A stretch of DNA of 15,977 nucleotides from an uncultured archaeon (GTDB lineage Archaea; Iainarchaeota; Iainarchaeia; Iainarchaeales; 0-14-0-20-30-16): the NCBI GenBank assembly GCA_964565125.1, contig CAZMCX010000011.1:1-15977 (forward strand). The letters are read 5' to 3'. Positions 1-15,977 of this stretch are shown here, in pieces. Made by a program: the position numbers and the translations under genes. The notes beneath the pieces were generated by a model. The model saw only the letters and a list, made by a program, of their open reading frames with translations. It ran no database searches and was not told where the DNA came from. Position 1 is the first letter of the stretch. Each line of letters opens with the position of its first letter.

Positions 1-169
1 TTCGGATTAGATTACTTGTAAGAGAATTAATTTCTCTTTCCTTTTTTTTCTTTTTTTATTTCTGATAAGTGACAAAGTTTAACCATGTTTTATAGAATGC
101 CAAAGTCTTTCATGTTGTTTCTTTGTGTTGATTTGTTTTGCCTTTAGGTACAGCTTCTCTTTTGTCTAA

Positions 170-1999: not shown

Positions 2000-2004
2000 G
2001 TAAA

Positions 2005-2355
2005 TTACTCCAAATCTAGACTAATTTTAAGGGCCTCTTCAATTTTTAATAGTGTCTGTTTGTCTTCTATTGCCCCTAACTTTTTTATAAGTCTGTTTTT
2101 TATTGAAAAAGTATAAATGTGCGAACATAAAATAGAACTATCTTTTTCTAAACCTGAAATGTTTTTTGGAACAAAAACACAAGTAGGCAAATTTTCAGTT
2201 ATCTTGCTAGTTATTGCCAGAACTATTGTGTTTGGAGAATATGTATTTCCCACATCATTTTGAATTATTAAACAAGGACGAGTTTTGCCCATTTCAGAAC
2301 CAAATGCGGGATCAAATCTTGCTAAATAAATTTCTCCCCTTTTTATATCTACCAA
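2005..2355 (-). CDS. mazF: MazF/PemK-family endoribonuclease toxin
   Basis: 116 aa. IKRGEIYLARFDPAFGSEMGKTRPCLIIQND is the typical MazF/PemK N-terminal signature. The start is TTG, preceded by SD GGTGAT (2361-2366 on the + strand as atcacc). It overlaps the upstream antitoxin gene by 7 nt. Confidence 0.9.
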   Translation of the reverse strand: MVDIKRGEIYLARFDPAFGSEMGKTRPCLIIQNDVGNTYSPNTIVLAITSKITENLPTCVFVPKNISGLEKDSSILCSHIYTFSIKNRLIKKLGAIEDKQTLLKIEEALKISLDLE

Positions 2356-2600
2356 GTAGTATCACCTAAAGTAGACTCAAAATCTTTTGCAATCTCTGCG
2401 TGTAATTTAGAATATTTTTGATAATATTCCTTTAATTTATCTATTGTATCTTTTTTTTGTTCTAATTTTTCTATTATTACTTTTCCATTTTCTACTTTTA
2501 CTAATATGCTGTCTTTAGGCCTTATTCCAGTGTAATCTCTTATATTCTTTGGAATTGTTATTTGTCCCCTTTCTCCTACCACGCTTACATCAGCAACCAT
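2349..2600 (-). CDS. mazE: AbrB/SpoVT/MazE-type antitoxin (swapped-hairpin DNA-binding fold)
   Basis: GERGQITIPKNIRDYTGIRPKDSILVKVENGKVIIEKL is an AbrB/MazE-type looped-hinge motif. I prefer the ATG at 2600 (83 aa), because GGTGAT lies 3 nt upstream (2604-2609 as atcacc), over the GTG at 2618 used by the ORF track. An A/T-rich TATA-like tract lies at 2619-2635. Confidence 0.85.
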   Translation of the reverse strand: MVADVSVVGERGQITIPKNIRDYTGIRPKDSILVKVENGKVIIEKLEQKKDTIDKLKEYYQKYSKLHAEIAKDFESTLGDTTW

Positions 2601-2661
2601 TACATCACCAATACCCACTTTACATATATTTCATACTTGGAACCCTTTTTAAACAAATCTA

Positions 2662-4896
2662 TTATTGATTTGTATTTTCATACTCCTTATTAATTATATC
2701 ATAAATTTTCTTGGCCTTCTTCTCGCCTAGCTTGTCTATGTTCTGCAAAGAATCCTCGCTTGCATTAAATACTCTTTTTACACTTTTATACTTTTCTAAA
2801 AGCCTTTTGGCTAAGGTTGGTCCAACAAAAGGAAGGCCTTCTAGTATGCTTCTCTGGAGAATGTGATCTTCAACTCCTTTTTTGACTTTCCTGAGATGCA
2901 ATTCGTTCTCTTTCTTTGTCTGTTCCCTTTTTGCAACTAAAGTGATAAACTCTGCAACCTCTTTTGGGGTTTTTATGAAAAATATTGGAATCTTGAAGTC
3001 TGTGCTTAAAGAAAGTATGCTTCCTAAAACTGCGTTTTTGTTTATGTTTCTGCTCTCATAATCCAAAATGCCTTCTACAATAATTATTGGCTTTTCATAT
3101 GCAATGAGTTTTGATGCTTGGGTGAAAAGCCTGTTATCTAAAATTGAATTGAGGAAATCGTCTGATTTCTTTCGTTCTATTACTGCTTCTTGACCAACTA
3201 GGTAATCTCCAATGTCTAGAGTCTCAAATTCTAGATCTACTTCTTCTTTGTTGAAGAAGGATAATGCCTGTGCATTTCTCTCTCTGTGGTCAATTATAAT
3301 TGTTGGTTTAAGTTTTTTTTTTGAATCTATAGTTGTAAGTAAAGTAGTTTGTTTTATCTCTTTAGGTTTAACAATCCCGTTTATTTTGTCGTTCACAGAT
3401 TCTTTTTTTGAAAGCCTGTCTATTGTGGTCTCCATTTTCTTTTCTTTTTTCAGAGATGACCAGTAAAAAATTTCATCTTTTGTGTCTTTAGTAATTAAAA
3501 TATAGACTTTTCCACTTTTAAAACGCCCAGTTCTTCCTCGTCTTTGGATCATTCTTATCTCAGAGGGTACGGGCTCATAGAAGACTATAGTGTCTACTGC
3601 CGGAAGGTCAAGACCTTCTTCTGCAACCGAGGTAGCAAGTAATACATTGTATTTTCCGTCTTTGAAATCATCGATTATCTCTTTTTGTTCTTTTTGGTTC
3701 AAGCCTTTGTCATCTTCTTTATTTGCCTGGCCTACAAACCTCTTAACACTAAGCAAGGGATTTTTTTGTAAGATTGATTCAAGATGCTTTACGGAATCTC
3801 TGTAATGATTGAAAACAATTATTTTCTGTTTTGGATCTCGATTTAATTCAAATAAAACTATTTCTATGAGCTTTTGTAATTTTGGGTGATTTATGTCTGC
3901 TAAATTGAAGCCTTCAGTTAGGTAAATTGCTTTTTGGATTCTTTCATCTTTTTGCATCATTCCTGCTGATTTTGTGATGTCTTCTTTGAGTTTATGGAAA
4001 TATTCTTCAAGAGCTTGTACGCCCTGAGTTTCAAGCATAAGTGAAGCATGGTTTGTTTTCAATAATGCGGAAATATACATCATGGCCTGGTAATCTTTAC
4101 TTTCCTTTTTTTCTATCTGGGATACTTTTCTCTGTAACATTAGAATCTCGCTTTGGGTGCATTGGCTTCTTAGGGCAAATCCATATCTTTGAATATGGTG
4201 GATAACTTCTTTTGCATAACTATCTAATGAACTTTGGATGAGTTTGTATTGCTCGGGAAGCTCAACTTTTATCCACTGTACATTTACTGGGTTTGTGTAA
4301 GGTGCTATGTCTGCATCGGTTTTTCTTTTTAGTTCTATGTTTGTGAACCTTAGGTTGTCCATTATTGCTTTTATTTTGCTTTTTTCGTTTCCGGGTGATG
4401 CGGTTAGGCCTAATGTCTTACAGATAGTTTTTTTTGCTATGTCTACATAGGCATAAGCCCCCGCAGCTTTATGGGCTTCATCAAATATAATTAGGTCGAA
4501 AGCCCCTAATTCTTCTTTACTTAAACCTGAAAAAGTTTGGGGTGTGGCGCAAATAACTTCACAATTGCTTAGTTCTGTGCTTCTTTTTTTTGTTGAGATT
4601 GAGCCTGTGATAAGGCCTATTTCTGCTTTTAAAACAGAACTTAAAAATTCATAATGTTGGTTAACAAGTGGCTTGGTTGGTGCAAGAAACAGAATCTTGC
4701 CTTTTTTCTTTAGTAAAGTTTCAGCAATTACAAATAATGCAATAACTGTTTTTCCTAATCCGGTGGGCAAAACAATTAAAGTGCTTTCTTCGAGACCTTT
4801 TTCTGCAAGAGCAATCTGGTATTGCCTGTGTTTTATTATGTCTTTTTTCATTAGGGGGTGGTTGTAGTAGATACCCTCGAGATATTTTTCTAGCAT
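2662..4896 (-). CDS. hef: Hef: archaeal helicase-nuclease (SF2 helicase + ERCC4/XPF nuclease + (HhH)2)
   Basis: 744 aa. Helicase motifs are present: PTGLGKT (Walker A), FDEAHKA (DEAH), TASPG and QRRGRTGR (motif VI). The C-terminal ERCC4 nuclease carries IIIDHRE...IGDYLV...ERKKSDDF. A terminal tandem helix-hairpin-helix follows (LPFVGPTLAKRLL...LGEKKAKKIY). Confidence 0.95.
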   Translation of the reverse strand: MLEKYLEGIYYNHPLMKKDIIKHRQYQIALAEKGLEESTLIVLPTGLGKTVIALFVIAETLLKKKGKILFLAPTKPLVNQHYEFLSSVLKAEIGLITGSISTKKRSTELSNCEVICATPQTFSGLSKEELGAFDLIIFDEAHKAAGAYAYVDIAKKTICKTLGLTASPGNEKSKIKAIMDNLRFTNIELKRKTDADIAPYTNPVNVQWIKVELPEQYKLIQSSLDSYAKEVIHHIQRYGFALRSQCTQSEILMLQRKVSQIEKKESKDYQAMMYISALLKTNHASLMLETQGVQALEEYFHKLKEDITKSAGMMQKDERIQKAIYLTEGFNLADINHPKLQKLIEIVLFELNRDPKQKIIVFNHYRDSVKHLESILQKNPLLSVKRFVGQANKEDDKGLNQKEQKEIIDDFKDGKYNVLLATSVAEEGLDLPAVDTIVFYEPVPSEIRMIQRRGRTGRFKSGKVYILITKDTKDEIFYWSSLKKEKKMETTIDRLSKKESVNDKINGIVKPKEIKQTTLLTTIDSKKKLKPTIIIDHRERNAQALSFFNKEEVDLEFETLDIGDYLVGQEAVIERKKSDDFLNSILDNRLFTQASKLIAYEKPIIIVEGILDYESRNINKNAVLGSILSLSTDFKIPIFFIKTPKEVAEFITLVAKREQTKKENELHLRKVKKGVEDHILQRSILEGLPFVGPTLAKRLLEKYKSVKRVFNASEDSLQNIDKLGEKKAKKIYDIINKEYENTNQ

Positions 4897-4928
4897 ATTT
4901 ATATATATTGTAAATAACTAATAAATAT
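4897..4928. promoter_or_regulatory. 32-bp A/T-only divergent promoter spacer between hef and the 4929 gene; both genes probably leaderless
   Basis: The sequence is atttatatatattgtaaataactaataaatat. TATA-like tracts lie about 20-30 nt upstream of each start codon on the respective strands. No SD motif precedes either ATG. Confidence 0.5.
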
Positions 4929-5744
4929 ATGTTACAAGTGCCACCGGAATATTTGAAAACAAGGGGAAAAGGCTTATTTAAGACTTTAGAGTTTTCTGAT
5001 CATGTTTTAGGCCATAAAGACCCTTTTTTTAGAGACTGCGGACTTTTTGGTGCAAGAAAATTAATTTCTTGGGTTGGAGAACAGGGAAATAGGATAAATG
5101 AACTAATTCACTTGGTTGGTCCAAGAGAAGCAAGGCCTTTTTTGGACTTGCTTGCTACTGCAAAAGTTAGAGATAAACGCAGATTTTTGGAAAAATTAAG
5201 GCTTTTTATTCAGGATGACAGTACACGAGGTCTTAATAGGTCCAATAAGGTAATTGGGATTTTAGCAGGATATGGGTTTAGTGAAAATGGGCTAGCTGAA
5301 TGTCTTGGTGAGATTTCAATGGCAAACAAAGCAAGCGGTCCGGCTTTAGCAGAAGCCTATGAACAAGTTATAGATTTACTTGCTTATTATAAAGGTACTT
5401 TTAAAGGAGATGAAGCAGTTTATCCCTTGAAAATGGTTAGAACAATTTTTGCAATTTCCGGTGACCCTGAAACCCAAAGAAAAATATGCAAAAAGTATAT
5501 TGATTTAATATTTTCTAGTTCAAATCCAAAGGCTTGTTTACAAAAAGGAAAAAACTTTTTAGTAATACTTTTGAAATTATTAAAAGAAAAAAAATATGAT
5601 GCCATTGACAGAATGTTTAGGAATATCAAAGATCTTAAAACCTATGTTGACTTGACAAGTAAAATTGATGATGCTACTTTACAAACTGACTTTGCGAAAA
5701 TTTCAGAATATTTATTAACTGCCCGTGAAGTTGAATTTTCTTAA
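4929..5744 (+). CDS. Hypothetical protein, predicted all-helical, no recognisable motif
   Basis: 271-aa ORF filling the gap between hef and the MFS gene. Its stop TAA (5742-5744) overlaps the convergent MFS stop within the tetranucleotide TTAA. No family signature recognised by eye. Confidence 0.7.
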   Translation: MLQVPPEYLKTRGKGLFKTLEFSDHVLGHKDPFFRDCGLFGARKLISWVGEQGNRINELIHLVGPREARPFLDLLATAKVRDKRRFLEKLRLFIQDDSTRGLNRSNKVIGILAGYGFSENGLAECLGEISMANKASGPALAEAYEQVIDLLAYYKGTFKGDEAVYPLKMVRTIFAISGDPETQRKICKKYIDLIFSSSNPKACLQKGKNFLVILLKLLKEKKYDAIDRMFRNIKDLKTYVDLTSKIDDATLQTDFAKISEYLLTAREVEFS

Positions 5745-6925
5745 TATGGAACAATTACTTCTTTTATTTTTAAACTTATATAAAAAAATACCGCCATCAA
5801 AACAAACATTGTCAAAAATGCAAACTGGTTTGGTAAAAATAAAAGTACTATTGCTGGGATAAATTTTCCAAGCGCGGCGCCCAGATCTTTAGAAGTTGCA
5901 AAAATAGGGTAATACTTTTCTTCATCTAGTCTTTTTACTTGTTTGAAAAAGAAAGCCCCCTCTATTGGCTCGATGAATGAGGCGGCGATACTTGCAATTA
6001 CCACAAGAGTAAGCTGTAAGTAAATATTGTTTATGAAAAATAAAGCCAGTGAAATTAGACTTAATAAAAAAAATCCATACTTAAAGAATTTTCTGAATCC
6101 TAATTTTTCGGATGCCTTTCCAACAAAATATTCAAATATAATTAGTGGTATAACTAAAACTGCAATAAATACACTTACTGTGCCATTGCTTAATCCAGCT
6201 TTTATTATGAATAATGGCAGATAAATATAGACAAACCCCCACCAAACCTGTAAGCCCATTGAAATTAGATATGGAAGTTGTAATGTTTTGTCTTTTACAA
6301 AATATATCAGATTTAATAAAATATGTTTATCTAATCCATCTCTTTCTTTTTGTAAGGGGGAAATTTTTAAGATTAAGAATAATATTAATGCCATTGCATA
6401 AAATCCTGCTGCAGATAAAAATACAGATCGCAATCCATATTCAACCAAGAAAAATCCAGCAATTAACGGGCCTATTAACCATGCAAAATTGATTATACAA
6501 AACATTATTGACATTTGTCTGTTTAATTTTCCATCTTCAGAGTTGTCTCTAAACAAAATGTCGCTTGCGTTTACTCTTAGTATGGTATTTATAACTAATA
6601 CCAGATATACTGCCAAAAAGAAATATAAGTTTGTAATTATTAACAGGATCCCAAATCCGACAATTGAAATTAACAAGCTTACTATAATTATTTTTCTTTG
6701 GTTATATTTTTCTAAGATTGGAATTGCTAAAAGTGATGACCCAACAGAAACAATTACGAAAATACTGGAAATAAGACCAACTTCAGATTCAGATAAACCA
6801 AAACTAAATAGGTAAATCGCCCATATTGTTGTTATTGCAGCTAAGGCAAGCGATACAAAAAACCTTACAAATGCAAGCTCTGTACTTTTTGAGATTTGTA
6901 TATTTGCATAGTTTAGCTTTTGCAT
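5741..6925 (-). CDS. Major facilitator superfamily (MFS) transporter
   Basis: 394 aa, about 12 hydrophobic segments in a 6+6 layout with a central loop (KISPLQKERDGLDK). Composition and length are typical of MFS; the substrate cannot be inferred. Confidence 0.8.
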   Translation of the reverse strand: MQKLNYANIQISKSTELAFVRFFVSLALAAITTIWAIYLFSFGLSESEVGLISSIFVIVSVGSSLLAIPILEKYNQRKIIIVSLLISIVGFGILLIITNLYFFLAVYLVLVINTILRVNASDILFRDNSEDGKLNRQMSIMFCIINFAWLIGPLIAGFFLVEYGLRSVFLSAAGFYAMALILFLILKISPLQKERDGLDKHILLNLIYFVKDKTLQLPYLISMGLQVWWGFVYIYLPLFIIKAGLSNGTVSVFIAVLVIPLIIFEYFVGKASEKLGFRKFFKYGFFLLSLISLALFFINNIYLQLTLVVIASIAASFIEPIEGAFFFKQVKRLDEEKYYPIFATSKDLGAALGKFIPAIVLLFLPNQFAFLTMFVLMAVFFYISLKIKEVIVPY

Positions 6926-6978
6926 GATATAAGAAGATTATTGTTATTTATATTTTTTTGTACCAGTCTTTTACAAAA

Positions 6979-7020
6979 GGCAAAAAGCTTTCTTTGCCAT
7001 AGCAAATTGCTTTCTTGGCA
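6979..7020. repeat. Two tandem copies of a ~20-nt imperfect-palindromic motif (gcaaaNNgctttctt core)
   Basis: The two copies are ggcaaaaagctttctttgcc (6979-6998; stem GGCAAA/TTTGCC) and agcaaattgctttcttggca (7001-7020). The core gcaaaaagctttctt (6980-6994) recurs exactly at 7524-7538. Confidence 0.6.
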
Positions 7021-7120
7021 CAAGGCCACCGGTATAATCTTTGTTGCCTGGAAAAAGAAGAATCCCTTATGGCATTTATGCCATTATTTTTCTTTTGGTG
7101 AACCTATGCTTTTCTTTTTT

Positions 7121-7135
7121 TTAAAAAGAAAAGAA
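7121..7135 (-). terminator. Oligo-T tract immediately 3' of tRNA-Arg (archaeal-type terminator)
   Basis: The minus strand reads TTCTTTTCTTTTTAA directly after the discriminator base. Archaeal RNA polymerase is known to terminate at oligo-T runs. Confidence 0.5.
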
Positions 7136-7208
7136 TGGCCTCACGGGGATTTGAACCCCGGCCGGAGGCTCCGCAAGCCCCTATGCTATCCAACTGCACC
7201 ATGAGGTC
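7136..7208 (-). tRNA. tRNA-Arg (anticodon GCG), 73 nt, no intron, CCA not encoded
   Basis: Hand-folded from the reverse complement GACCTCATGGTGCAGTTGGATAGCATAGGGGCTTGCGGAGCCTCCGGCCGGGGTTCAAATCCCCGTGAGGCCA. D-arm is GTGC/GCAT. Anticodon stem is GGGGC/GCCTC with loop TTGCGGA. T-arm is CGGGG-TTCAAAT-CCCCG. The acceptor stem pairs 6 of 7 positions, with an A2:C71 mismatch. Confidence 0.9.
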
Positions 7209-7267
7209 AATAATATATATCTTTATTCCAATAATATAATAAGTTTAATTTTTTGGGAGAGATATTG

Positions 7268-7480
7268 ATGGGGTATAAAATAGAACAAGATTATAAGAAT
7301 TGTATCGGGTGTGGGGCTTGTGTGGCAATTTGTCCTAAGTTTTGGGTTATGGAAGGAGTAAAAGCAAAGCCAAAGAAAACAGAATTTGATGAAAAAGACT
7401 TAAAGTGCAACAAAGAAGTAGCAGAATCCTGTCCGGCAAATGTAATACATCTTTTTAAGGATAAGAAGAAGATAATTTAG
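7268..7480 (+). CDS. Small mono-cluster [4Fe-4S]/[3Fe-4S] ferredoxin
   Basis: CIGCGACVAICP plus a distal SCP gives the CxxCxxC...CP ligand pattern. The extra Cys pair (ICP and KCN) matches the disulfide pair of Pyrococcus/Thermotoga-type ferredoxins. I prefer the ATG at 7268 (70 aa), preceded by GGGAGAG (7255-7261), over the TTG at 7253. Confidence 0.85.
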   Translation: MGYKIEQDYKNCIGCGACVAICPKFWVMEGVKAKPKKTEFDEKDLKCNKEVAESCPANVIHLFKDKKKII

Positions 7481-7555
7481 CGTTCCGCTAAATTACTTCT
7501 GCCCCAGAAACTTTTTGCGTTAAGCAAAAAGCTTTCTTGAGAAGAAGATAATTTA
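7464..7555 (+). repeat. 16-nt exact direct repeat (agaagaagataattta at 7464-7479 and 7540-7555) flanking a 60-nt segment with two strong hairpins
   Basis: Hairpin 1 spans 7473-7495: taatttagcg-ttc-cgctaaatta, 10 bp, covering the ferredoxin stop codon. Hairpin 2 spans 7506-7537: agaaactttttgc-gttaa-gcaaaaagctttct, 13 bp with one bulged C. The first repeat copy encodes the ferredoxin C-terminus (KKII-stop). The second copy would encode the same end and overlaps the TATA-like tract upstream of the alkD-like gene. Confidence 0.7.
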
Positions 7556-7570
7556 AGATAACTGATTTTT

Positions 7571-8272
7571 ATGCTTGAACAAATTTTTAAAGAAACTGAA
7601 AGATTAAAAGATCCGGAGAGGGCAAAACAACTTAAAAGATTCTTTAAAACTGGCAAAGGTGAATATGGCGAGGGAGACGAATTCTTAGGTGGAATTACTG
7701 TTCCCCAATTAAGAATCCTTGCAAAAAAATATGGGAGTATAGAGTTACAAGAACTCCAGAATCTTATATGTAGTAAGTATCATGAATATCGTCAATTGGC
7801 TCTGATAATATTAGTCAACAAGTACAAAAAAGTCAAGCAAGAACGAGAAAAAAAGGAAATAGTTGACTTTTATATTAAGAATCGAAAGTATGTAAATAAT
7901 TGGGATTTAGTTGATTGTTCTGCGCCATATATTACTGGAGACTACTTTTTTGATAAAGACAAAAAAGTTTTGTATAATTTTGCAAAATCAAAAAACTTGT
8001 GGGAAAAAAGAATTGCAATAATTTCTACTTTTGGATTTATAAAACAAAATTCTTTTGAAGACTCTTTAAAAATTGCGGAGATTCTTTTGGAAGATAAACA
8101 CGATTTAATACATAAGGCAGTGGGTTGGATGTTAAGGGAAATAGGGACCCGGGACAGGGCTGTTGAAAAAAGGTTTTTGGATAAGCACATAAGAAAAATG
8201 CCGAGAACTATGTTAAGATATGCGATTGAAAAATTTCCTGAAAAAGAAAGATTATATTATTTGAAGTTATAA
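7571..8272 (+). CDS. alkD: DNA alkylation repair protein, AlkD/AlkC-like HEAT-repeat DNA glycosylase family
   Basis: 233 aa. NNWDLVDCSAPYITGDYF, LWEKRIAIISTFGFIKQ and HDLIHKAVGWMLREIG match the conserved blocks of the DNA_alkylation family as I recall Bacillus AlkD (WWDSVD..., W..R.A.., IQKAIGWVLRE). Confidence 0.85.
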   Translation: MLEQIFKETERLKDPERAKQLKRFFKTGKGEYGEGDEFLGGITVPQLRILAKKYGSIELQELQNLICSKYHEYRQLALIILVNKYKKVKQEREKKEIVDFYIKNRKYVNNWDLVDCSAPYITGDYFFDKDKKVLYNFAKSKNLWEKRIAIISTFGFIKQNSFEDSLKIAEILLEDKHDLIHKAVGWMLREIGTRDRAVEKRFLDKHIRKMPRTMLRYAIEKFPEKERLYYLKL

Positions 8273-8418
8273 TCTTGCAGGCTGACAAAATTTATCTTGT
8301 TTTTCTTTGTGTAGTTGTGATCTGTCTTTCCTTTTGGTGCTTTTTGTCTTTAACATCTTTAATCCTGACTATAACAGACCTATTTTCCTACTTGCTGTTC
8401 TTTTCCCTATTTGTCATT

Positions 8419-9300
8419 TTACAACTTGTCTTTGATATAATTTACTATCTCATCTTCATTGAACATGTTTCCAATTGTTGACCTTAATTCTTTTGCGCCT
8501 CTGAAGCTGTGGAAAAATTGGATTGCTTTTTGTTTTAAGTCATTTGGATTTGTTAAGTTGTATTTTTTGAAAAGTTTATAATATTCGAGGAAAATCTTTT
8601 TTGGGTTTGCGTCTTTTTTTGAAAAGACCCACGGATTTTTCATGGCTTCTCTCCCGATCATGAATCCATTACAGTATTTTTCTTTTAGGTATTTCTTTCC
8701 TTGTGCGATGGTTTGGATATCCCCATTTCCAATAATAAAGTTATCAGTAGTTTCTTTAAGTTCTTTTATTATTTCCCAATCTGCAGTTCCAGAGTACCTT
8801 TGCTCTGAAGTTCGTCCGTGTATTATTATTACATCTACAAATGAAGAAATCTTTTCAACTAGCTTTTTTGTGCTTTCTTTGTTTTTTAGAATTCTTATTT
8901 TTACTGATTTTGTAAAATCAAAACTTTGGATTGATTTTAAAATTTCAATTAATGTATCTTGATTTGTAAGAAGCCTTGATCCAGCCCCGATTTTTATAAT
9001 CTTTGGCATTGGGCACCCCGCATTGATGTCAAGCCATTTTATTTTTTCAAAAGTATTTATTCTCTCAATAGCAAGTGGATATTCTTCAGGCTTTGTGCCG
9101 AACAGTTGTATTCCGACTTTTTTTTCTTTTGTGAAATCAATGAATTTGTGTATGTTCTTATCTTTTTGATGTATTATTTGTGTTGTATTAATTAAGGGTG
9201 CAAAAGTAAACTCTGCACCAGATTTTTTACAGAGTTCTCTAAATGGCCTGTTTGTGTATTCTGAAATCGGTGCCAAATAAATCTTGGGAAATGTTGTCAT
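8419..9300 (-). CDS. dus: tRNA-dihydrouridine synthase (Dus family, TIM-barrel flavoenzyme)
   Basis: 293 aa. LAPISEYTNRPFRELC, INAGCPMPKIIKIGAGSRLL (catalytic Cys loop), IIIHGRTSEQRYSGTADWEII and the GNGDI motif are typical Dus signatures. Confidence 0.85.
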   Translation of the reverse strand: MTTFPKIYLAPISEYTNRPFRELCKKSGAEFTFAPLINTTQIIHQKDKNIHKFIDFTKEKKVGIQLFGTKPEEYPLAIERINTFEKIKWLDINAGCPMPKIIKIGAGSRLLTNQDTLIEILKSIQSFDFTKSVKIRILKNKESTKKLVEKISSFVDVIIIHGRTSEQRYSGTADWEIIKELKETTDNFIIGNGDIQTIAQGKKYLKEKYCNGFMIGREAMKNPWVFSKKDANPKKIFLEYYKLFKKYNLTNPNDLKQKAIQFFHSFRGAKELRSTIGNMFNEDEIVNYIKDKL

Positions 9301-9352
9301 AATTACCTTTAAATACGAAAAGGTTAATAAAGCTCAATGTTCCTCTTTAATA

Positions 9353-10024
9353 ATGTGTTTTACTCCAGCAATATCTTTATCAACTGCAATATTTGAGTTT
9401 GCAGTAGCAACTTTTATTTTATTCTATTTTAGGAAGGCGACCTTACATAAATCTGTAGTGATATTTCTTTATGTCCTTGGTTTGTACCAATTAACAGAAT
9501 TCTTTTTGTGCACTACCTCAAATCCGTTTTTGTGGGCTAAGATTGGATTTATAACCTATTCATTCCTGCCTGCTTTGGGCCTGTATTATGCTTTAGACTA
9601 CTTAAGAAAGAAAGTTTACTTAATCCCAATTTTTTTGGTCCCGGTTGCGATTACAATATTTGTTTTAATTAAAACCAATTTCGTTAGTATGGCGGCTTGT
9701 GGAAACTTTTTTGTAACTACAAGAAATATATTTATGGGTCACTGGCTTGGAGTAGTATATTTAGTATATTATTTTGGATTTGTTGTATTAATTGCTGTGT
9801 TTTTGGTTCTACATGCAATAAAAAAACAGGGAACAAAGAGGAGGATAGATATTATTGTGCTTATTGCTCTTGTGCTATCCCTTTTGCCGCCAATAGTTTT
9901 GATATTTATTCTTCCGTCTTTGAAGATAATGTTCCCATCAATATATTGTGAGTTTGCTGTGCTTTTTGCATTTGCTATCCTCTTGGGCTTTTGTTTGGAT
10001 TCAAAACAAAAGACAAAAAAATAA
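9353..10024 (+). CDS. Polytopic integral membrane protein, unknown function
   Basis: There are about 7 hydrophobic segments. I prefer the ATG at 9353 (223 aa), because the TTG at 9284 would overlap the divergent dus start. No family motif recognised. Confidence 0.65.
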   Translation: MCFTPAISLSTAIFEFAVATFILFYFRKATLHKSVVIFLYVLGLYQLTEFFLCTTSNPFLWAKIGFITYSFLPALGLYYALDYLRKKVYLIPIFLVPVAITIFVLIKTNFVSMAACGNFFVTTRNIFMGHWLGVVYLVYYFGFVVLIAVFLVLHAIKKQGTKRRIDIIVLIALVLSLLPPIVLIFILPSLKIMFPSIYCEFAVLFAFAILLGFCLDSKQKTKK

Positions 10025-10044
10025 ATAACTTTAAAAGATTTGCG

Positions 10045-10473
10045 ATGTTAAAAAAAATAATGCAAAATAAAAGATGCCATTATGGTAACTCGAGAGATTT
10101 TATTAGCTCTCCAGTTGGTAATGAGGTTTCTGCAGTTTTCTTTGGCGTAGAAGATAAAATAATCAATAATTCTAAATTTCTTTATAACTCTCTTAAACAA
10201 GGATTGAAGAAAGAAAAATTTACAATTCTAGGGGAATCTTCATATAGCTTTAAACCGCAGGGCTACACGCTTGTATTTCTGCTAGGGGAATCTCATGTTG
10301 CAATACATACCTATCCTGAGTTTAATTCTATTACTTTTCAGATTTATTCTTGTAGGGGCCCAGAAGATGGCTTTATAACATTTAAACATTTTGTTGATAA
10401 AGTAAAACCAAAGAAAGTAAAGATGACTGATTTTAGAGTTGTAGTTGATCCTAGGTTTAAACAAATTACTTAA
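10045..10473 (+). CDS. speH: S-adenosylmethionine decarboxylase proenzyme, pyruvoyl-dependent class 1 (SpeH/SpeD-like)
   Basis: FKPQGYTLVFLLGESHVAIHTYPEFNSITFQIYSC matches the F.P.G.T....L.ESH..IHT.PE self-cleavage motif, with the Glu-Ser bond as the processing site. I prefer the ATG at 10045 (142 aa), just after the upstream gene's stop. A related pyruvoyl arginine decarboxylase paralogue cannot be excluded. Confidence 0.75.
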   Translation: MLKKIMQNKRCHYGNSRDFISSPVGNEVSAVFFGVEDKIINNSKFLYNSLKQGLKKEKFTILGESSYSFKPQGYTLVFLLGESHVAIHTYPEFNSITFQIYSCRGPEDGFITFKHFVDKVKPKKVKMTDFRVVVDPRFKQIT

Positions 10474-11098
10474 TTTTTTTAATTGCTATTGCATCTTGTA
10501 ACTTTGCTGTTGTGAATCTTTTGTCTTTCATAATTTCTCTTGGGATTTTTAATACTGGGTAAATTAATAATATTCCCCCGCTTCTAAGCGAATGTGAAAG
10601 TTTTCTAATAACTAGGTCTGGCATTACTGTATATTTTAAGCCACCCAGATTAGAAACTATGATATCATATGCTTGTCTTGGAAGGAATAACTCTGCAGAT
10701 TCATAAATAATTTCATCTACTAATCCTTTTTTGTATTTTTCGTTAAGTTCTGGATGTTCATAAATATCTAATGCGGTTGTGTAAATCCGTTTTCCTAAAT
10801 CTTTTTTGAGTGATGCTAAGAACTGGCCTTTTCCAGCACCAACATCTAAAATTTTTATTTTTCGTCTTACTGCTTTTAGTGTTTCAATATATCTGTTAAA
10901 ATCAAAATCAGAACCATTTGGCAAAGCAAACCGATAAGGGGATTGTGAATAAACCATTTCAAGCCTTGTGTCTCCTGATTTTATTTCTTTTATGTGATGT
11001 TCGAATTTGTGTTTTTCTTTGGGGTTTATTATCCGCTTTTGTAATTCTTCCTGTGCTTTTTTTACTTCTGAATTAATATATTGTTTATCTTTCAGCAT
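10466..11098 (-). CDS. Class I SAM-dependent methyltransferase, substrate unknown
   Basis: KILDVGAGKGQF is motif I (the GxGxG loop). ALDIY and YDIIVSN serve as the downstream acidic and motif IV-like strands. I prefer the ATG at 11098 (210 aa), 4 nt after the MetAP stop. The 3' end overlaps the convergent speH-like gene by 8 nt. Confidence 0.8.
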   Translation of the reverse strand: MLKDKQYINSEVKKAQEELQKRIINPKEKHKFEHHIKEIKSGDTRLEMVYSQSPYRFALPNGSDFDFNRYIETLKAVRRKIKILDVGAGKGQFLASLKKDLGKRIYTTALDIYEHPELNEKYKKGLVDEIIYESAELFLPRQAYDIIVSNLGGLKYTVMPDLVIRKLSHSLRSGGILLIYPVLKIPREIMKDKRFTTAKLQDAIAIKKIK

Positions 11099-11102
11099 AA
11101 AG

Positions 11103-11996
11103 TCACCTGGCAAATATATGAATATTATTATTTTCACCTATATATATTGTTGCTTCTGCTTGTGAAATCAAACAACCTTCTCTGTCATCTAATTGTGGTG
11201 CTGGTCGTATGCACCCCTCTTTTACTAATAATGCCAAAGTAATTTTCTTGCTTGTTGGGTTTAAATCTTTTCCAATCCATCTTTCAGAGAATGGCAACCC
11301 CTTGCTGTTCTCTAACTCTTTAAGAATTTTTCGCCCTATTTGGTTTCTTGTTTGTTTTTCTGTGGGAAAATATATACTACAAAAAGACGCATTTTTTACA
11401 AACCCGTTTCCTGTGCTCGCAAATGGTTCTATTGCGTAAATTCTATTTGTGCCTAAAGTTGAGTTGTCTTTTTGAGAAATGTTTGGAATGCTTTTTCCAG
11501 CATGTAAACTATAAGCGGAAATTTCATGGCCCATAAGATTTGAAATTGGCTTGAATCCAAATGAAATAATTTCTTTTTCAATAATTGTGCCGATTTCTCC
11601 AACTTTTGAATCTTTTTTGTTTTTCTTAATATAATCTAATGCTTTTTCCAGGGCGTTTTTGCTTGCATTAACTAATTTCTCATTTTTTCCAGATAGATCT
11701 ATTGTAAACGCGCCATCTATTGTATAACCATTTGACTGCGCACCAATATCCACTTTAATTAAGTCGTCTTTTCCCCAAACTTCTTTGGAATCAGATAGCG
11801 GGGAATAATGTGCCGCAGAATTGTTTCTGGACAGGTTCACAGGAAATGCAACTTCTGCATACTTTCTAATCTCGGACTCTATTTTCTCTGCACAGTCTAG
11901 AATAGATTTGCCAAATTTAATTTCTTTTAAGGCAACCTTTTTTGCGGAAAGCCAAGCTTTATTTGCTTTTTCCAAGTTTTCAAGAATCATGTTCAC
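11103..11996 (-). CDS. map: Methionine aminopeptidase, type 2 (archaeal)
   Basis: FPVNLSRNNSAAHYSP, KVDIGAQSNGYTIDGAFT, GHEISAYSLHAGKSIP and YAIEPFASTGNG match the MetAP2 pita-bread metal-ligand blocks. GGTG lies directly after the polB stop. The start is either the GTG at 11996 or the ATG at 11990. Confidence 0.92.
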   Translation of the reverse strand: MNMILENLEKANKAWLSAKKVALKEIKFGKSILDCAEKIESEIRKYAEVAFPVNLSRNNSAAHYSPLSDSKEVWGKDDLIKVDIGAQSNGYTIDGAFTIDLSGKNEKLVNASKNALEKALDYIKKNKKDSKVGEIGTIIEKEIISFGFKPISNLMGHEISAYSLHAGKSIPNISQKDNSTLGTNRIYAIEPFASTGNGFVKNASFCSIYFPTEKQTRNQIGRKILKELENSKGLPFSERWIGKDLNPTSKKITLALLVKEGCIRPAPQLDDREGCLISQAEATIYIGENNNIHIFAR

Positions 11997-12005
11997 ATTT
12001 ACACC

Positions 12006-14354
12006 CTAAAATAATTTCTGTTGCTTTGTGCTTTCAATAAGCTTTTCTTTTGTAAATCCTAACTGCTCTACTAACGGAATTACTGCTGGAAGCACCTGGT
12101 TGTTAATATAATATTCTTCATCATAAGAATTGTCTTTTACAAACTGTTCTAACTCTGCTTTCTCTGAAATTGTAATTCCGTTTTTTGTGATAATGTAATT
12201 TACAATAGTCCCCGGCCTCATTAAAACCCCCCTTCTCTCTGCTTTTCTTGCTGCAGAAACATGTGGGGAAATGTTGTTGTATTTATTTAATGGTTTTGTA
12301 ATTTTTGAAGAAAGTACAAGATCCTCTTTTTTTACTTTGTGGGCAATTAACAAAGAAATAGTTTCTCTTATTTTTTTAATTGCTTTTTCTAGATTCCCTT
12401 CTTTTAAAATTATTTCTAAAACATCTTTTTGTAGGCTTTTTGCAACATTGCTCCAATCCCTGCGTACAAATTCAAATCCAACAATTTTTAGGTTTCCTTC
12501 AAAGTCGATTAGTGCATATCTTTTTTTTGCACCAACGTTTTCTGACTTCTTAGAAACAAACAAACCTCTTTTGTAAAAACCATCAAGAGTTAATTTTATT
12601 TCACCAGGAAGTGTGGAATTTATTTTTTTCAAAAATGTTTCTACTTCGCTTTGTTTTCTATAAATTAAGAATGCACTATCTGTATCAGAATAAATTACTT
12701 TTAATGCGTTTTTTTCTGCTTGTTCACAAACCATTTTTATATACTCTTGAGAATATGCAACTGTTGATCTTGCACACTCTAAACAATACCATCTTGCTCG
12801 GGGGTATGCTAAGTATCCATAAAAACTTGCTAATAATCTTTTTAAGCTCCATTGTCTTGCAAATAAAACATCTTTTTTGCTTTTGTCTGCTTTTTGCATT
12901 TCTGTTTTTACTTTCATTCTTTTGTCTAAAATTTCTTTTATAATTCCGGGAATTATTGCTTTAACTTCTAAATTGAATTTGTCTTTTGTGGGGCTTATAA
13001 CAAGTTTCTTTCCCGGAACATTTAATGTTTCTGGAGATATATTATGTGTAATAATAATTGATGGGTGTAGTGATCTGAAATCGATTACTGCAATATTTTC
13101 ATAAATATTTGGCTCTGGCTGTTTTACATATCCGCCCACATAAGTAATATCTGCTCTGTCTCCAATTATCTCCCCACTTGGCTTTTTGGGGATAAACTTT
13201 TTCTCCTTTGCATAATAATACATTATTATTGATTCGATCATATTGCTTGTGGGAAGCCTTATTGTATCTTGTAATGTTCTGCGTATTATTTTTGAAAGTT
13301 CTGTGAAAGTAAGAAGATATTTTTCGCCTAACTTGTAAGTTGCTTTTGAATCATCTAAATTGTATTCAAATAAACGATTTCGTTTTTCAATATTTTCCCA
13401 TAATTCAGGAATTTCTGTATATTCTAGGTCTATTTTCTCTTTTTCTAAAAGGGTTTCATAAGCAGTCGTTAAATCTAATTTGTTTAAACTTATGCTTCCT
13501 AATCTTGCAAGATAGGCAATTATTTTATATACGTCTACGTGCTGTATTCCGGTTGTGTAAGAAATTTTGCCCATACTTGATTTTCGGATTTTTGGTTTTA
13601 AATAAATCCCTAAGTCAATATCGAATTCTTTTGCTCGATTGTAAATTACCGGGATGTCAAAGTTGTCCCCATTATAAGTAAAAATAAAATCAAAATTGTT
13701 TAAAATTTCTAGAGTTCTTTCGATCATTTCTTTTTCATCTTTACAAAGTTCTAAGTTTTTGTTATTTTCTTTTGTGTCTCTGTAACTTAAAATTGTTTTA
13801 ATTTTATCTGAATAAATTGAAATAGAAATTATTTCGTTTTTTAACATATCTTTGTTGTCGCTTGTTGTTTCAATATCTAATGCACAGCATAATGGCGCAA
13901 ATTCTTTTTTGGTTTCTTTGAATTCTAAACCCTCTTTTGAAGTTATTTCATAATGTGCAAGAGGGGTGATCTGTTTGTCTATTATGTATCTCTGGTCAAA
14001 AGGAATATCATAATCATGTTTTGCTATAAAGGACTCTAATGTCTTTACATTGCCCCGCATTTCCATTAGCTGGGTTGTGTTTTTGAAACATAATTTATAA
14101 ATAGTATTTTTTTCATATTTTTTTTGTTTTTCATAACTTAGGAAAAGATTTTTGTTGTTTGCTAAAGCTTTTTCAAATTTCTTTTCGTTGTCAACTTCTA
14201 CATAAAAATATGGCTTAAAATAAGGGTCTTCTATTATTTGTTTAACTTTTCCGCTATTTATACAGATGTTTATTATGGATTCATTCTTTTCGTTGTTTTC
14301 ATAGAATATATCTAAAATTGTTCCCGAGTACTGCTTCTTTAATTTTTTACCCAT
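12006..14354 (-). CDS. polB: Family B DNA polymerase (PolB), no intein
   Basis: Exo I ALDIETT, Exo II YNGDNFDIP, Exo III EYNLDDSKATY, motif A DFRSLHPSII, motif B KRLLASFYGYLAY...RWYCLECA, motif C VIYSDTDS, and KKRYAL. I prefer the ATG at 14354 (782 aa), preceded by GAAGGT (14361-14366 as accttc). The 37 extra codons in the ORF track read through the A/T promoter region. Confidence 0.95.
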   Translation of the reverse strand: MGKKLKKQYSGTILDIFYENNEKNESIINICINSGKVKQIIEDPYFKPYFYVEVDNEKKFEKALANNKNLFLSYEKQKKYEKNTIYKLCFKNTTQLMEMRGNVKTLESFIAKHDYDIPFDQRYIIDKQITPLAHYEITSKEGLEFKETKKEFAPLCCALDIETTSDNKDMLKNEIISISIYSDKIKTILSYRDTKENNKNLELCKDEKEMIERTLEILNNFDFIFTYNGDNFDIPVIYNRAKEFDIDLGIYLKPKIRKSSMGKISYTTGIQHVDVYKIIAYLARLGSISLNKLDLTTAYETLLEKEKIDLEYTEIPELWENIEKRNRLFEYNLDDSKATYKLGEKYLLTFTELSKIIRRTLQDTIRLPTSNMIESIIMYYYAKEKKFIPKKPSGEIIGDRADITYVGGYVKQPEPNIYENIAVIDFRSLHPSIIITHNISPETLNVPGKKLVISPTKDKFNLEVKAIIPGIIKEILDKRMKVKTEMQKADKSKKDVLFARQWSLKRLLASFYGYLAYPRARWYCLECARSTVAYSQEYIKMVCEQAEKNALKVIYSDTDSAFLIYRKQSEVETFLKKINSTLPGEIKLTLDGFYKRGLFVSKKSENVGAKKRYALIDFEGNLKIVGFEFVRRDWSNVAKSLQKDVLEIILKEGNLEKAIKKIRETISLLIAHKVKKEDLVLSSKITKPLNKYNNISPHVSAARKAERRGVLMRPGTIVNYIITKNGITISEKAELEQFVKDNSYDEEYYINNQVLPAVIPLVEQLGFTKEKLIESTKQQKLF

Positions 14355-14453
14355 AGAAATACCTTCGAGTTGTTGTTCTATATGAATTACAGAGTATAAT
14401 AATATATTTATATATATTCGGATGTTTACATATATGGTTGAGGTGAAATAGAT
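14355..14453. promoter_or_regulatory. Divergent promoter region between polB and the 14454 gene
   Basis: A/T-rich TATA-like tracts (aataatatatttatatatatt, about 14396-14418). SD GAGGTGA (14440-14446) lies 7 nt upstream of the ATG at 14454. SD GAAGGT on the minus strand lies 6 nt upstream of the polB ATG. Confidence 0.55.
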
Positions 14454-14864
14454 ATGGTCGAACAAACTCTGGGAAATAGTGCGGAGCTTAAAGCTCTAAA
14501 TACTACTGTTATGCTTCTTTCTCAGAAAATGGCCTATTTGGTAAGAAATGAAAAAATTCTGAGTAAAAATATCTTAATTCTTAATGAAAAAATAAACAAA
14601 GTTGCAGAAAAATCCATTACTGTGGGCGGATCTTCCACGGATTCTGCCCAAATGGAAGAAATTAATGTTCAAGTTGTTGAATTATATGATAAACAAAAAA
14701 GCATAAGACAAGAAATGGAGTCTTTAAGGACATCTATAGATAACTTGAAAGAGGTATTTGTTACAAAAGAAGAACTTCAGGAATTAAAATATATAATTGA
14801 CACAATAAACCCGTTGGAGTTTGTTACTTATCAGCAATTAAAAGATTTGCTTAATAAAAAGTGA
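14454..14864 (+). CDS. Hypothetical coiled-coil protein
   Basis: 136 aa with an excellent SD (GAGGTGA). Heptad-like Leu/Ile/Glu/Lys-rich segments flank a short Gly/Ser linker (VGGSSTDS). No family recognised. Confidence 0.75.
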   Translation: MVEQTLGNSAELKALNTTVMLLSQKMAYLVRNEKILSKNILILNEKINKVAEKSITVGGSSTDSAQMEEINVQVVELYDKQKSIRQEMESLRTSIDNLKEVFVTKEELQELKYIIDTINPLEFVTYQQLKDLLNKK

Positions 14865-15133
14865 AAACTGTCAATAACCAACTAATAAATTAGTTGGCTT
14901 GTTCTGACAGGAACAAGGGCAACAATTTGACTACAGAAAGAGGAAACAAAAACATGGAAACAAAAACTACGAGAACAGAGCTACAAGAACCTACAGATGC
15001 TTCACTAGTCTGTAGCACTTCAGCAGAACTGTTAAATGCAACGAGTTTAGAAAACATTGAAAACATCAGTGATAACTCTATGCTTTGTTCTCATTCTGGA
15101 AGTGAGTATAACTTGAACGAAGGTTTAGCCAGT
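14865..15133 (+). ncRNA. Candidate structured non-coding RNA (omega-RNA-like scaffold) upstream of the IscB/IsrB-like ORF; alternatively a disordered N-terminal protein extension
   Basis: The position is analogous to IscB-associated omega-RNAs, which lie immediately 5' of the PLMP-domain start. Hairpins occur at 14878-14917, 14991-15015 (ctacag/ctgtag) and 15090-15106. An 11-bp long-range complement pairs gagaacagagc (14971-14981) with gctttgttctc (15082-15092, one G:U). Counter-evidence: the region is stop-free in the ORF frame for 80 codons, and GAGG lies 10 nt upstream of the ATG at 14954. Confidence 0.3.
14878..14917 (+). other. Two back-to-back perfect hairpins just downstream of the coiled-coil gene and upstream of the IscB-like ORF
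   Basis: The first is ccaactaat-aa-attagttgg (14878-14897, 9-bp arms). It is followed immediately by cttgttc-tgacag-gaacaag (14898-14917, 7-bp stem, 6-nt loop). Neither is followed by a T-run. Confidence 0.7.
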
Positions 15134-15394
15134 ATGTCTGGAAGAATATTTGTTTTAAGTTTTACAGGAAAGCCATTAACACCTTGTAAACCGGGCAAAG
15201 CAAGAAAGTTAATTTGTGGAGGGGTAGCAAAAGTAGTTTGGAACAAGTTTGGAGAATTTGGAATACAAATGTTAATTCCAACAAGAAGAGCTTGTAGATT
15301 TGATAATAGAAAAAGAGATGGATTTATTGCACCATCACAACTGATGATGGTTCAAAGCAGATTAAAAGCAATACAAGAACTTTTCAACTATTGA
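15134..15394 (+). pseudogene. IscB/IsrB-like (RRXRR / PLMP-domain) OMEGA-family nuclease, N-terminal fragment: PLMP domain fused directly to the RF.NR.R..PS segment, with no RuvC-I
   Basis: MSGRIFVLSFTGKPLTPCKPGKARKLICGGVAKVVWNKFGEFGIQML matches the recalled PLMP-domain consensus (vfVl...GkPLMPc.parAR.LL..GkA.vv...PFtIQL), which in IscB begins at the protein N-terminus. RRACRFDNRKRDGFIAPSQL matches the recalled RF.NR.r..gWL.PS block. GAAGGT lies 10 nt upstream of the ATG at 15134. The ORF ends in TGA at 15392-15394. The ORF track extends it upstream to a TTG at 14894. Confidence 0.6.
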
Positions 15395-15908
15395 AGTTGG
15401 TAAAAATATGATTAAAGCATTTATTATTGGAAAAGTTGGTAGAGATAATTATATTACTTTTGAAGGATTTGAAACAGGACAGGCAAGAGAAAAAAGAGAA
15501 TTAAAAAAGTCTTCAAAGAAAGCTTTAGAAACTTTTAACTCTCATTGTGTAGACAGCTTTTCAATAGCTTCTGAATTATCAAATGCAGAACCAAATTTTA
15601 ATATTAAAATTGTTGACGACACTTACAGACCAACAAGAAGAAAGTTACATGATACTCAGCCAAAGAAAGGAAATATAAGAAAAAAATATTCAACAGGAAA
15701 TTTTAAAGGAATAAGAAAGGGAACAATCTGCGAGTTCGGACAGATTGTTGGTGGAACTAAAAATAATGTCTGGATTAGAAATTCAGATAACAAAAGGATT
15801 GGTAAAGATATTAAGAAAATTAGTTGGTTATCTCATAATTTTAAACTAAAGGAGGGCTCAATTCCCCCAACCAATAAATTGGGTGGTATCCTTGAGCAAG
15901 TTTTATGA
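15366..15908 (+). pseudogene. IscB/IsrB-like nuclease, C-terminal fragment in a different frame: candidate RuvC-II Glu region, RuvC-III H..D, and a TID-like C-terminal domain; no HNH
   Basis: This frame is open from 15366, with the first ATG at 15408. STIEVGKN (candidate RuvC-II Glu) lies upstream of that ATG. SHCVDSFSIAS resembles the RuvC-III H..DA motif. RPTRRKLHDTQPKKGNIRKKYSTGNFKGIRKGTICEF...VWIRNSDNKRIGKDIKKISWL resembles the IscB C-terminal target-interaction domain pattern (basic stretch, GF..gD.V, G.v.vR.sG, i....l.ll). No Cys-pair or HNH motif is present. Confidence 0.6.
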
Positions 15909-15977
15909 AAACAAGATCCATAGCACTATTAATCTTTTTTCTGTTTTTGTTTATATCTTTCTCGTTTTCTCTAGATA
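15905..15977 (+). CDS. 5' end of a secreted or membrane protein (signal-peptide-like N-terminus), running off the window
   Basis: The ATG at 15905 overlaps the upstream TGA in an ATGA junction. Translation is MKTRSIALLIFFLFLFISFSFSLD: a basic n-region, a hydrophobic core and a small-residue c-region. Only 24 codons are visible. Confidence 0.45.
   Translation, partial: MKTRSIALLIFFLFLFISFSFSLD

Follow-up and report, generated by a model that had tools for sequence, protein, structure and literature searches.

The 15,977-nucleotide (nt) stretch of archaeal DNA analysed here (contig CAZMCX010000011.1, positions 1 to 15,977; hereafter the window) raises, near its right end, the question of whether a small RNA-guided nuclease has been kept in a reduced form or has simply died. 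Two open reading frames (ORFs) of 166 codons each, ORF1 (14894-15394, TTG start) and ORF2 (15408-15908, ATG start), lie there one frame apart. A first interpretation made from the DNA letters, the sequence-only reading, had described them as the halves of an IscB relative lacking HNH, either a dead IS200/IS605-associated remnant or an inactive and possibly domesticated RNA-guided DNA-binding protein, and both pairs of coordinates were verified. Our analysis very probably decides the question in favour of the remnant: positions 14870-15904 constitute a single 1,035-nt non-autonomous IS200/IS605-type OMEGA element of the IsrB kind, decayed and recently pseudogenised. The same high confidence covers the explanation as a whole, that is, a decayed IsrB element in which two deletions killed the nuclease gene while the omega RNA stayed intact.

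First of all, the identity of the encoded protein was considered. ORF1 matched Pfam RRXRR (PF14239), the family built around the PLMP N-terminus of IscB/IsrB, at residues 85-126 with 41.3 bits (cut-off 25; E 1.9e-10), and the protein proper begins at the ATG at 15134 (MSGRIFVLSFTGKPLTPC...). The NCBIfam profile guided_IscB gave a weak match (34 bits versus a cut-off of 175), which is expected for a truncated IsrB and was not used for membership. ORF2 by itself had no match in Pfam or NCBIfam. This null result suggested an unrelated ORF, but the homologue search overturned that idea. The frameshift-corrected fusion of 258 amino acids (aa) retrieved 439 homologues, and the best ~100 were 400-415-aa (~405) 'RRXRR domain-containing' proteins, ~60% identical over 100% of the fusion and labelled as Nanoarchaeota, Woesearchaeota and other archaeal metagenome-assembled genomes. 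Profile match and end-to-end identity with these ~405-aa IsrB-like proteins thus bear out the proposal of one HNH-less protein split in two frames. An intact relative, P0001, was aligned with the structure of IsrB from Desulfovirgula thermocuniculi (DtIsrB; PDB 8DMB; Hirano et al. 2022, PMC9581776) with E 2.6e-46, and with IscB structures at only ~1e-9, in a match restricted to the N-terminal part. The lack of HNH was likewise confirmed, as the intact relatives carry PF14239 only and match IsrB far better than IscB. The window fusion was aligned with 8DMB with E 1.5e-12 in three collinear pieces:

15134-15286, + strand: isrB pseudogene piece 1, PLMP domain (MSGRIFVLSFTGKPLTPC...FGIQMLIPT); Pfam RRXRR; 8DMB chain 157-203, approximately DtIsrB 7-53.

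15287-15374, + strand: isrB pseudogene piece 2, REC-linker block and helix before RuvC-II (RRACRFDNRKRDGFIAPSQLMMVQSRLKAIQ); 8DMB chain 263-302.

15387-15905, + strand: isrB pseudogene piece 3, in the +1 frame, with the rest of the HNH-like linker, RuvC-III (SHCVDS) and a WED/TI-like C-terminus; 8DMB chain 322-476.

Piece 3, in which the ATG of ORF2 lies at 15408, is 85-87% identical to intact relatives in the aligned columns. Most of the blocks that had been proposed along the two ORFs found their counterpart in DtIsrB. The PLMP block, already recognised by PF14239, aligns with the DtIsrB PLMP domain, the 'RF.NR.R...PS' block with 'ARFDNRRRKGYWLAPTQ' of the REC linker, and 'SHCVDS', invariant in the relatives, with 'THANDA' of RuvC-III. 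The basic C-terminal part aligns with the IsrB region running into the TI domain, so a TI domain is probably represented, judging by homology. The exception was 'TIEV', which had been taken for the RuvC-II Glu and in fact aligns with DtIsrB 'TVEIGK', downstream of the catalytic 'TEDVRF'.

The reason for the split was found in the alignments of protein and DNA to intact copies. RuvC-I and the Arg-rich helix, which had seemed to be missing, are indeed gone; this loss was the only one counted by the sequence-only reading, which overlooked a second deletion of 80 nt that is the source of the frame change. The junctions are:

15283-15287, + strand: junction of deletion 1.

15375-15378, + strand: junction of deletion 2.

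Deletion 1 (after 15286) comprises 186 nt, or 62 codons, and is in frame. It removed RuvC-I and the Arg-rich bridge helix, the stretch that in relatives reads '...REETPKTILGIDxGTKFEG...RRQLRRARRWRNCR' with LGIDxGTKFEG as RuvC-I, leaving of the helix only the tail 'RRACRFDNR'. It corresponds approximately to DtIsrB 54-112, taking 8DMB chain numbers to run 150 ahead of those of DtIsrB and using the domain limits of PMC9581776. Deletion 2 (after 15374) is frameshifting and removed 'FKCYPINKVAIEDVKFNHRDKRWGKN', that is, the strand with the RuvC-II Glu (VAIEDVKFNH) and the start of the HNH-like linker; the true RuvC-II Glu lies in VAIEDVKF of the relatives and TEDVRF of DtIsrB. In intact copies, the AAGA microhomology is present at both breakpoints of deletion 1 and an imperfect 13-nt direct repeat (AAGAGTTTTTCAA / AAGAACTTTTCAA) at those of deletion 2. 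These short direct repeats suggest slippage or microhomology-mediated deletion. In place of a single ORF of ~350 aa, ~258 codons remain; relatives have ~345, counted from the PLMP Met. The loss of catalytic residues predicts that the window copy is incapable of RNA-guided nicking; in DtIsrB, removal of the HNH-like linker alone abolishes this activity (PMC9581776).

The limits of the element were established by DNA alignment of independent copies and by comparison with an orthologous empty site, and its ends carry two hairpins:

14870-15904, + strand: whole element.

14878-14897, + strand: subterminal hairpin of the omega-proximal end, CCAACTAAT/ATTAGTTGG, a perfect 9-nt inverted repeat whose stem covaries across copies (pairs 11-17/39-45).

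15856-15897, + strand: subterminal hairpin of the end proximal to the target-adjacent motif (TAM), GCTCAA..CCAACCAAT/ATTGGGTGG..TTGAGC, an inverted repeat with both stems compensatory across nine copies.

Among copies from unrelated neighbourhoods, homology begins exactly at 14870 (GTCAATAACC, position 1 of the HEARO RNA model) and is lost just past '...TTTATGAAA', at ~15904-15910. Intact copies measure 1,295-1,328 nt (~1,300) against the 1,035 nt of the window copy. The empty site was provided by L015, the orthologous locus of a sister lineage, where PolB, the coiled-coil gene and the 442-aa gene (75% aa identity) are present and neither IsrB nor HEARO was found; over PolB and the coiled-coil gene it is 81% identical to the window at the nt level. 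Its junction reads ...CTTAATAAAAAGTGAGGGCT followed directly by ATGAACGC..., and excising exactly 14870-15904 from the window gives ...CTTAATAAAAAGTGAAAACT followed by ATGAAAAC..., collinear with it. Seen from the left, L015 (...AAGTGAGGGCT and then ATGAAC...) is collinear with the window up to 14869. No duplicated flank was visible. As the two host genes are separated by only 5 nt in L015, they form an operon, and it was in this archaeal operon, precisely in the gap from the stop of the 136-aa gene to the ATG of the 442-aa gene, that the element inserted. Judging by the taxon labels of relatives, the host is probably DPANN or Nanoarchaeota-like. Ends common to the copies, subterminal hairpins and the lack of terminal inverted repeats place the element in the IS605 group. 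No Y1 (HUH) TnpA was found among the larger ORFs of the window, all of which were searched, nor on the 18-kb contig, and for this reason the element is called non-autonomous. Such an absence is usual for IscB/IsrB elements: HEARO/IscB are widespread in bacteria and archaea, rarely beside TnpA and often on viral fragments (PMC9755519).

The left part of the element is occupied by an RNA and not by a protein domain. The region 14870-15112 had been taken for the coding N-terminus of ORF1, and the Rfam scan identified it as omega/HEARO RNA:

14870-15112, + strand: omega RNA scaffold (HEARO, RF02033), which may extend to ~15133.

14851-14869, + strand: putative guide segment, host DNA just outside the element, formed by the last codons and TGA of the 136-aa gene and the 5-nt spacer.

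The match (73.1 bits, E 2e-13) is full length (model positions 1-211 of 211). ORF1 runs over this RNA with its first ~80 codons (14894-15133), which in relatives show a ratio of non-synonymous to synonymous changes (pN/pS) of 0.98, that is, no amino-acid constraint. Eleven copies were aligned, and their consensus fold has 57 pairs, 38 of which preserve pairing via changes on both sides. The window RNA forms 56 of the 57 covariation-supported pairs (51-57 in the other copies). Judged by this fold and by its score, the omega RNA of the window is structurally intact and scores as high as those beside intact genes. The omega RNAs of the clade, including those beside intact genes, all score 55.7-81.4 bits and so fall under the HEARO gathering cut-off of 83; default Rfam annotation will overlook the omega RNAs of the whole archaeal clade. 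Sub-threshold matches were recorded at L001, L003, L010, L012, L014, L016, L017, L019-L021, L023 and L025. The guide is placed 5' of the scaffold, reading in from the flank (PMC9581776; bioRxiv 10.1101/2023.03.14.532601), and here it would consist of about 16-20 nt of the upstream flank.

At the opposite end, the sequence-only reading had remarked on an ATGA in which the stop of ORF2 overlaps the start of the following gene, and had judged such tight coupling unexpected for a mobile element. The overlap with the downstream gene is present:

15905-15910, + strand: ATGAAA, host DNA; start codon of the 442-aa gene and target-adjacent motif (ATGAA at the empty site L015).

The surprise, however, disappears once the family is considered. 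The host gene starts with its own ATG at 15905, and the TGA at 15906-15908 doubles as IsrB stop. IsrB ORFs of this clade lack a stop of their own and terminate in the TGA of the target motif ATGA(A). Among 16 independent clade insertions, the motif holding the IsrB stop is ATGA in 12, ATAA in three and TTGA in one. Right junctions with a stop borrowed from the target were seen in the window, L010, L012, L016, L019, L021-L025, L030 and L032. In at least six of the 12 ATGA insertions the ATG opens a sizeable ORF, such as the T2SSF gene (L012), the PCNA gene (L032) and the 442-aa gene of the window, seen in full on L001; several clade insertions are not at gene starts. A scan of viral contigs yielded three distant loci only, and contributed to the motif tally non-clade examples and nothing more. 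The published IsrB TAM is 5'-NTGA-3' (PMC9581776), in agreement with ATGA here. That of Geobacillus stearothermophilus IscB (GstIscB) is TTCAT, the reverse complement of ATGAA, which adjoins the transposon end opposite the omega RNA and is used by both TnpA and nuclease (10.1101/2023.03.14.532601). The tight coupling to the downstream gene is therefore a consequence of target choice and a family trait: the clade lands on ATGAA motifs, often host start codons, as before the PCNA gene or between T2SSE and T2SSF genes. With a start codon as target and a borrowed stop, the element can sit inside operons without disrupting the downstream gene.

The history of this copy can be outlined on the basis of what is established for the family. 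The element inserted beside ATGAA, at once target-adjacent motif and host start codon. Its omega RNA would be transcribed together with ~16-20 nt of upstream flank (~14851-14869) as guide, the probable source being transcripts that read through from the upstream gene, which has the same orientation. IsrB loaded with this RNA would then nick the element-free 'donor joint', in which the guide match is followed by NTGA; for this copy the predicted target is AATAAAAAGTGAAAACT followed by ATGAAA. The nick would favour re-copying (reinstatement) of the element. In this copy, two deletions between short direct repeats, most simply through slippage or microhomology, killed the nuclease gene. What is left over are two ORF fragments, one with PLMP and linker and the other with RuvC-III and TI; the RNA half is intact and the protein half lost.

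The same state was found throughout the sampled population. At least 11 contigs, assembled from a number of JGI and ENA groundwater samples (among them JGI 3300025150 and 3300025868 and ENA ERZ272933xx), show the arrangement PolB, 136-aa gene, ORF1, ORF2 and 442-aa gene. Nine contigs overlapping the window, derived from several samples and different assemblers, are 99.4-100% identical to it at the nt level, and all nine carry both deletions, which are thus fixed in the sampled population. Only six population variants were found inside the element, too few for a selection test. One of them, G>A at 15754 (ORF2 codon 116, Gly116Glu), present on the three contigs L007-L009, changes the family-invariant Gly of the GQIVGGT motif in the TI region. 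This G116E is suggestive, and only suggestive, of relaxed constraint. Another non-synonymous variant, I80M at 15373, is carried by L002 and L007. On L008 the decayed element and its right flank are unchanged and the left flank (L008:1-163 versus window 14700-14869) is unrelated, with the break exactly at 14870. This flank had no match among the flanks of other copies, and it could reflect recombination between copies, an assembly chimera via the repeated 5' region of the omega RNA, or a second insertion. An intact 407-aa IsrB with its omega RNA (P0006/L032; JGI 3300025150, Ga0210057_1051668, 490-1799), 82-85% identical in nt to the window element, is inserted between a TFIIS-type Zn-ribbon gene and the PCNA gene, and comes from the same sample as L004, a contig with the decayed copy. 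The closest intact relative, P0001 (L010 and L011), lies amid many co-oriented small ORFs without Pfam matches, an nSTAND3-like ATPase and a Band_7 protein, a setting suggestive of a virus, or of another kind of mobile element, from a DPANN archaeon.

As a whole these data support the dead remnant as the simple explanation of the locus, very probably one whose pseudogenisation was recent relative to the divergence of the family. Three observations weigh against it. First, the HEARO match of the window missed the gathering score; homology is nevertheless supported by the E-value and the covariation. Second, L015 could be either a never-occupied site or the product of a scarless excision, two histories that look the same. 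Third, the retained coding pieces contain no further stops, indels or conserved-column violations, and purifying selection would have given the same picture. Of 93 columns with a conservation of 90% or more among 108 intact relatives, the retained parts violate none; intact sequences average 2.0 violations. Pairwise ratios of non-synonymous to synonymous substitution (dN/dS; L019 rows left out) were 0.11-0.19 between the window and intact copies and 0.11-0.22 among intact copies, and even the nearest intact copy sampled has a synonymous divergence (dS) of 0.44 or more from the window. Such a dS with a family-like dN/dS points to deletions that are recent relative to divergence, and fits a recent pseudogene and a still constrained sequence alike.

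We considered then whether the surviving RNA could still work. According to this possibility, the decayed element would be a satellite consisting of omega RNA alone, loaded by IsrB from an intact paralogue of the same genome and so protected or spread in trans. It is compatible with the decay described above, to which it adds a retained function. An omega RNA no less well formed than those next to intact genes agrees with it, as does the occurrence of P0006/L032 in the same sample as the decayed copy; another closely related copy is hinted at by L008, whose foreign left flank breaks exactly where the element ends, and protein-less relatives (PATEs) have been described (10.1101/2023.03.14.532601). 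However, an intact RNA is equally expected after a merely recent inactivation, the paralogue shares the sample and may or may not share the genome, and an identity of 82-85% makes cross-recognition uncertain. For these reasons we consider this option unlikely. A natural 'guide-only' OMEGA satellite, its guide matching its own empty site, that keeps homing without a nuclease of its own, together with its less likely version in which the fragments serve as nuclease-dead binder or translational coupler, would be a somewhat longer shot.

The second possibility, domestication, was the other alternative of the sequence-only reading: the fragments, perhaps with the omega RNA, would be kept as a nuclease-dead RNA-guided DNA-binding or regulatory device. 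The undamaged conserved columns and the absence of extra stops would be expected in this case, ORF2 possesses an ATG of its own and terminates at the ATGA of the host gene, and the state is fixed in the population. Nevertheless, the frameshift precludes a single polypeptide, the guide-holding bridge helix is lost together with RuvC-I, against which PLMP packs (PMC9581776), and the HNH-like linker, without which DtIsrB does not nick even if nothing else is removed (PMC9581776), is partly missing as well. The form is confined to one near-clonal population (99.4-100% nt identity), in which the invariant Gly of the TI region is polymorphic, and the dN/dS signal is indistinct from the family background. 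Related genomes gave no sign of a conserved split or deleted form either, as the other short relatives are broken at other places. A conserved 'minimised IsrB' architecture was rejected on the same comparison: P0102 has a different, larger in-frame deletion, L025 is split at another place and keeps VAIEDVKF, and P0112 owes its shortness to the end of its contig, as P0106, on a contig of 978 nt, probably does too. So, of the two alternatives of that reading, the dead remnant stands, and the inactive domesticated binder, with its frameshift, three lost parts that activity requires, differing lesions in relatives and G116E, is very improbable.

It was also conceivable that ORF2 has stayed open because termination at its ATGA lets ribosomes re-initiate on the 442-aa gene, which the insertion uncoupled from the upstream gene. 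The host genes are 5 nt apart at the empty site, ORF2 is the only ORF ending at the host ATG in the occupied one, and in at least six of the 12 ATGA insertions the ATG opens a sizeable downstream ORF. Recent inactivation, however, already accounts for an open ORF2, no conserved ribosome-binding signal was identified before its ATG, and several insertions are not at gene starts, all of which leaves translational coupling with very little probability. Finally, assembly or sequencing errors in an intact isrB can practically be dismissed despite the metagenomic origin of the data and a T-run adjoining one junction, since the lesions measure 186 and 80 nt, unlike single-base errors, and are identical on nine overlapping JGI and ENA contigs from different assemblers.

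A further trait of the clade concerns the frame that runs through the omega RNA:

14954-15133, + strand: stop-free in-frame stretch that starts at an internal ATG and runs over the 3' two-thirds of the omega RNA; 13 of 13 loci have this frame open.

In these loci (window, L010, L012, L014, L016-L023 and L025) no stop interrupts the IsrB frame over the 57-94 codons that precede the PLMP Met. Most of them have an in-frame ATG at ~80-100 nt from the start of the omega RNA, often with an AAGGAG-like motif before it. From this ATG to the PLMP Met there are no stops in 780 codons, versus 50 and 71 in the other two frames. The same stretch has a pN/pS of 0.98 and no codon periodicity, against 0.29 and a strong third-position bias in the PLMP core. 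The frame is thus kept open without amino-acid constraint; the stretch could be translated into a leader, its bases coding doubly for peptide and guide-RNA scaffold, or the frame could be open for another reason. In 108 of 120 homologues, a ~60-aa N-terminal extension was annotated by gene callers, which systematically annotate ~60 codons of the omega RNA of this clade as protein.

Elsewhere in the window, on the - strand, the genes for a MazF/PemK toxin (2005-2355) and a MazE-type antitoxin (2349-2618) share 7 nt, and this pair (2005-2618) lies between a gene for a FEN1/XPG-type nuclease (968-1999) and one for a Hef-like helicase-ERCC4 nuclease (2662-4896). A tRNA-Arg (GCG) gene is located at 7135-7209 on the - strand. 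Near it, a strong hairpin at 7496-7544 (AAGCTTTTTGC...GCAAAAAG) gave a spurious mir-208 match and may be terminator-like.

Comparison with known systems allows classifying the locus as a pseudogenised member, by descent, of the IsrB/omega RNA IS605-type elements, and it represents no new variant or system. Its intact relatives have the domain order of DtIsrB (Hirano et al. 2022, PMC9581776), namely PLMP, RuvC-I, bridge helix, REC linker, RuvC-II, a short HNH-like linker (without HNH domain), RuvC-III and TI. As in DtIsrB, the omega RNA is directly upstream of the ORF and the TAM is of the NTGA type (ATGA here). The window copy differs from DtIsrB in being frameshifted and without RuvC-I, bridge helix and RuvC-II Glu, with which no active IsrB is possible; the clade, in its AT-rich omega scaffold of ~245 nt, under the HEARO cut-off, and in a reading frame open far into the omega RNA. 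With respect to the HEARO family (RF02033), the full-length match and the covarying stems are like those of the family, and the 73.1 bits, lower than the gathering score, are unlike it.

The IscB IS605-family elements of G. stearothermophilus (Meers et al., 10.1101/2023.03.14.532601) are similarly non-autonomous, with no nearby TnpA, take the guide from the omega-side flank, have the TAM adjoining the opposite end, leave a scarless empty site and possess subterminal hairpins. The upstream gene is co-oriented in both cases, an orientation towards which IscB elements are biased (10.1101/2023.03.14.532601). The element described here differs in that it encodes IsrB (no HNH), is archaeal, has its nuclease gene pseudogenised and is known from sequence alone. 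In itself it matters little, being one more IsrB/omega-RNA transposon in early decay in an uncultured archaeon, and the idea of a minimised or domesticated nuclease fails. It is, on the other hand, a clean natural example in which occupied and empty orthologous sites delimit an element to the base. Like the PATE-like protein-less IS200/IS605 derivatives mentioned by Meers et al., it is decayed, with the transposon ends kept and the coding function lost. Unlike them, it retains most of the gene and a complete omega RNA, which corresponds to early decay and not to a minimal palindromic remnant. A nuclease gene broken by repeat-mediated deletion beside a guide RNA that is still perfect is the intermediate expected on the way to guide-only or protein-less derivatives.

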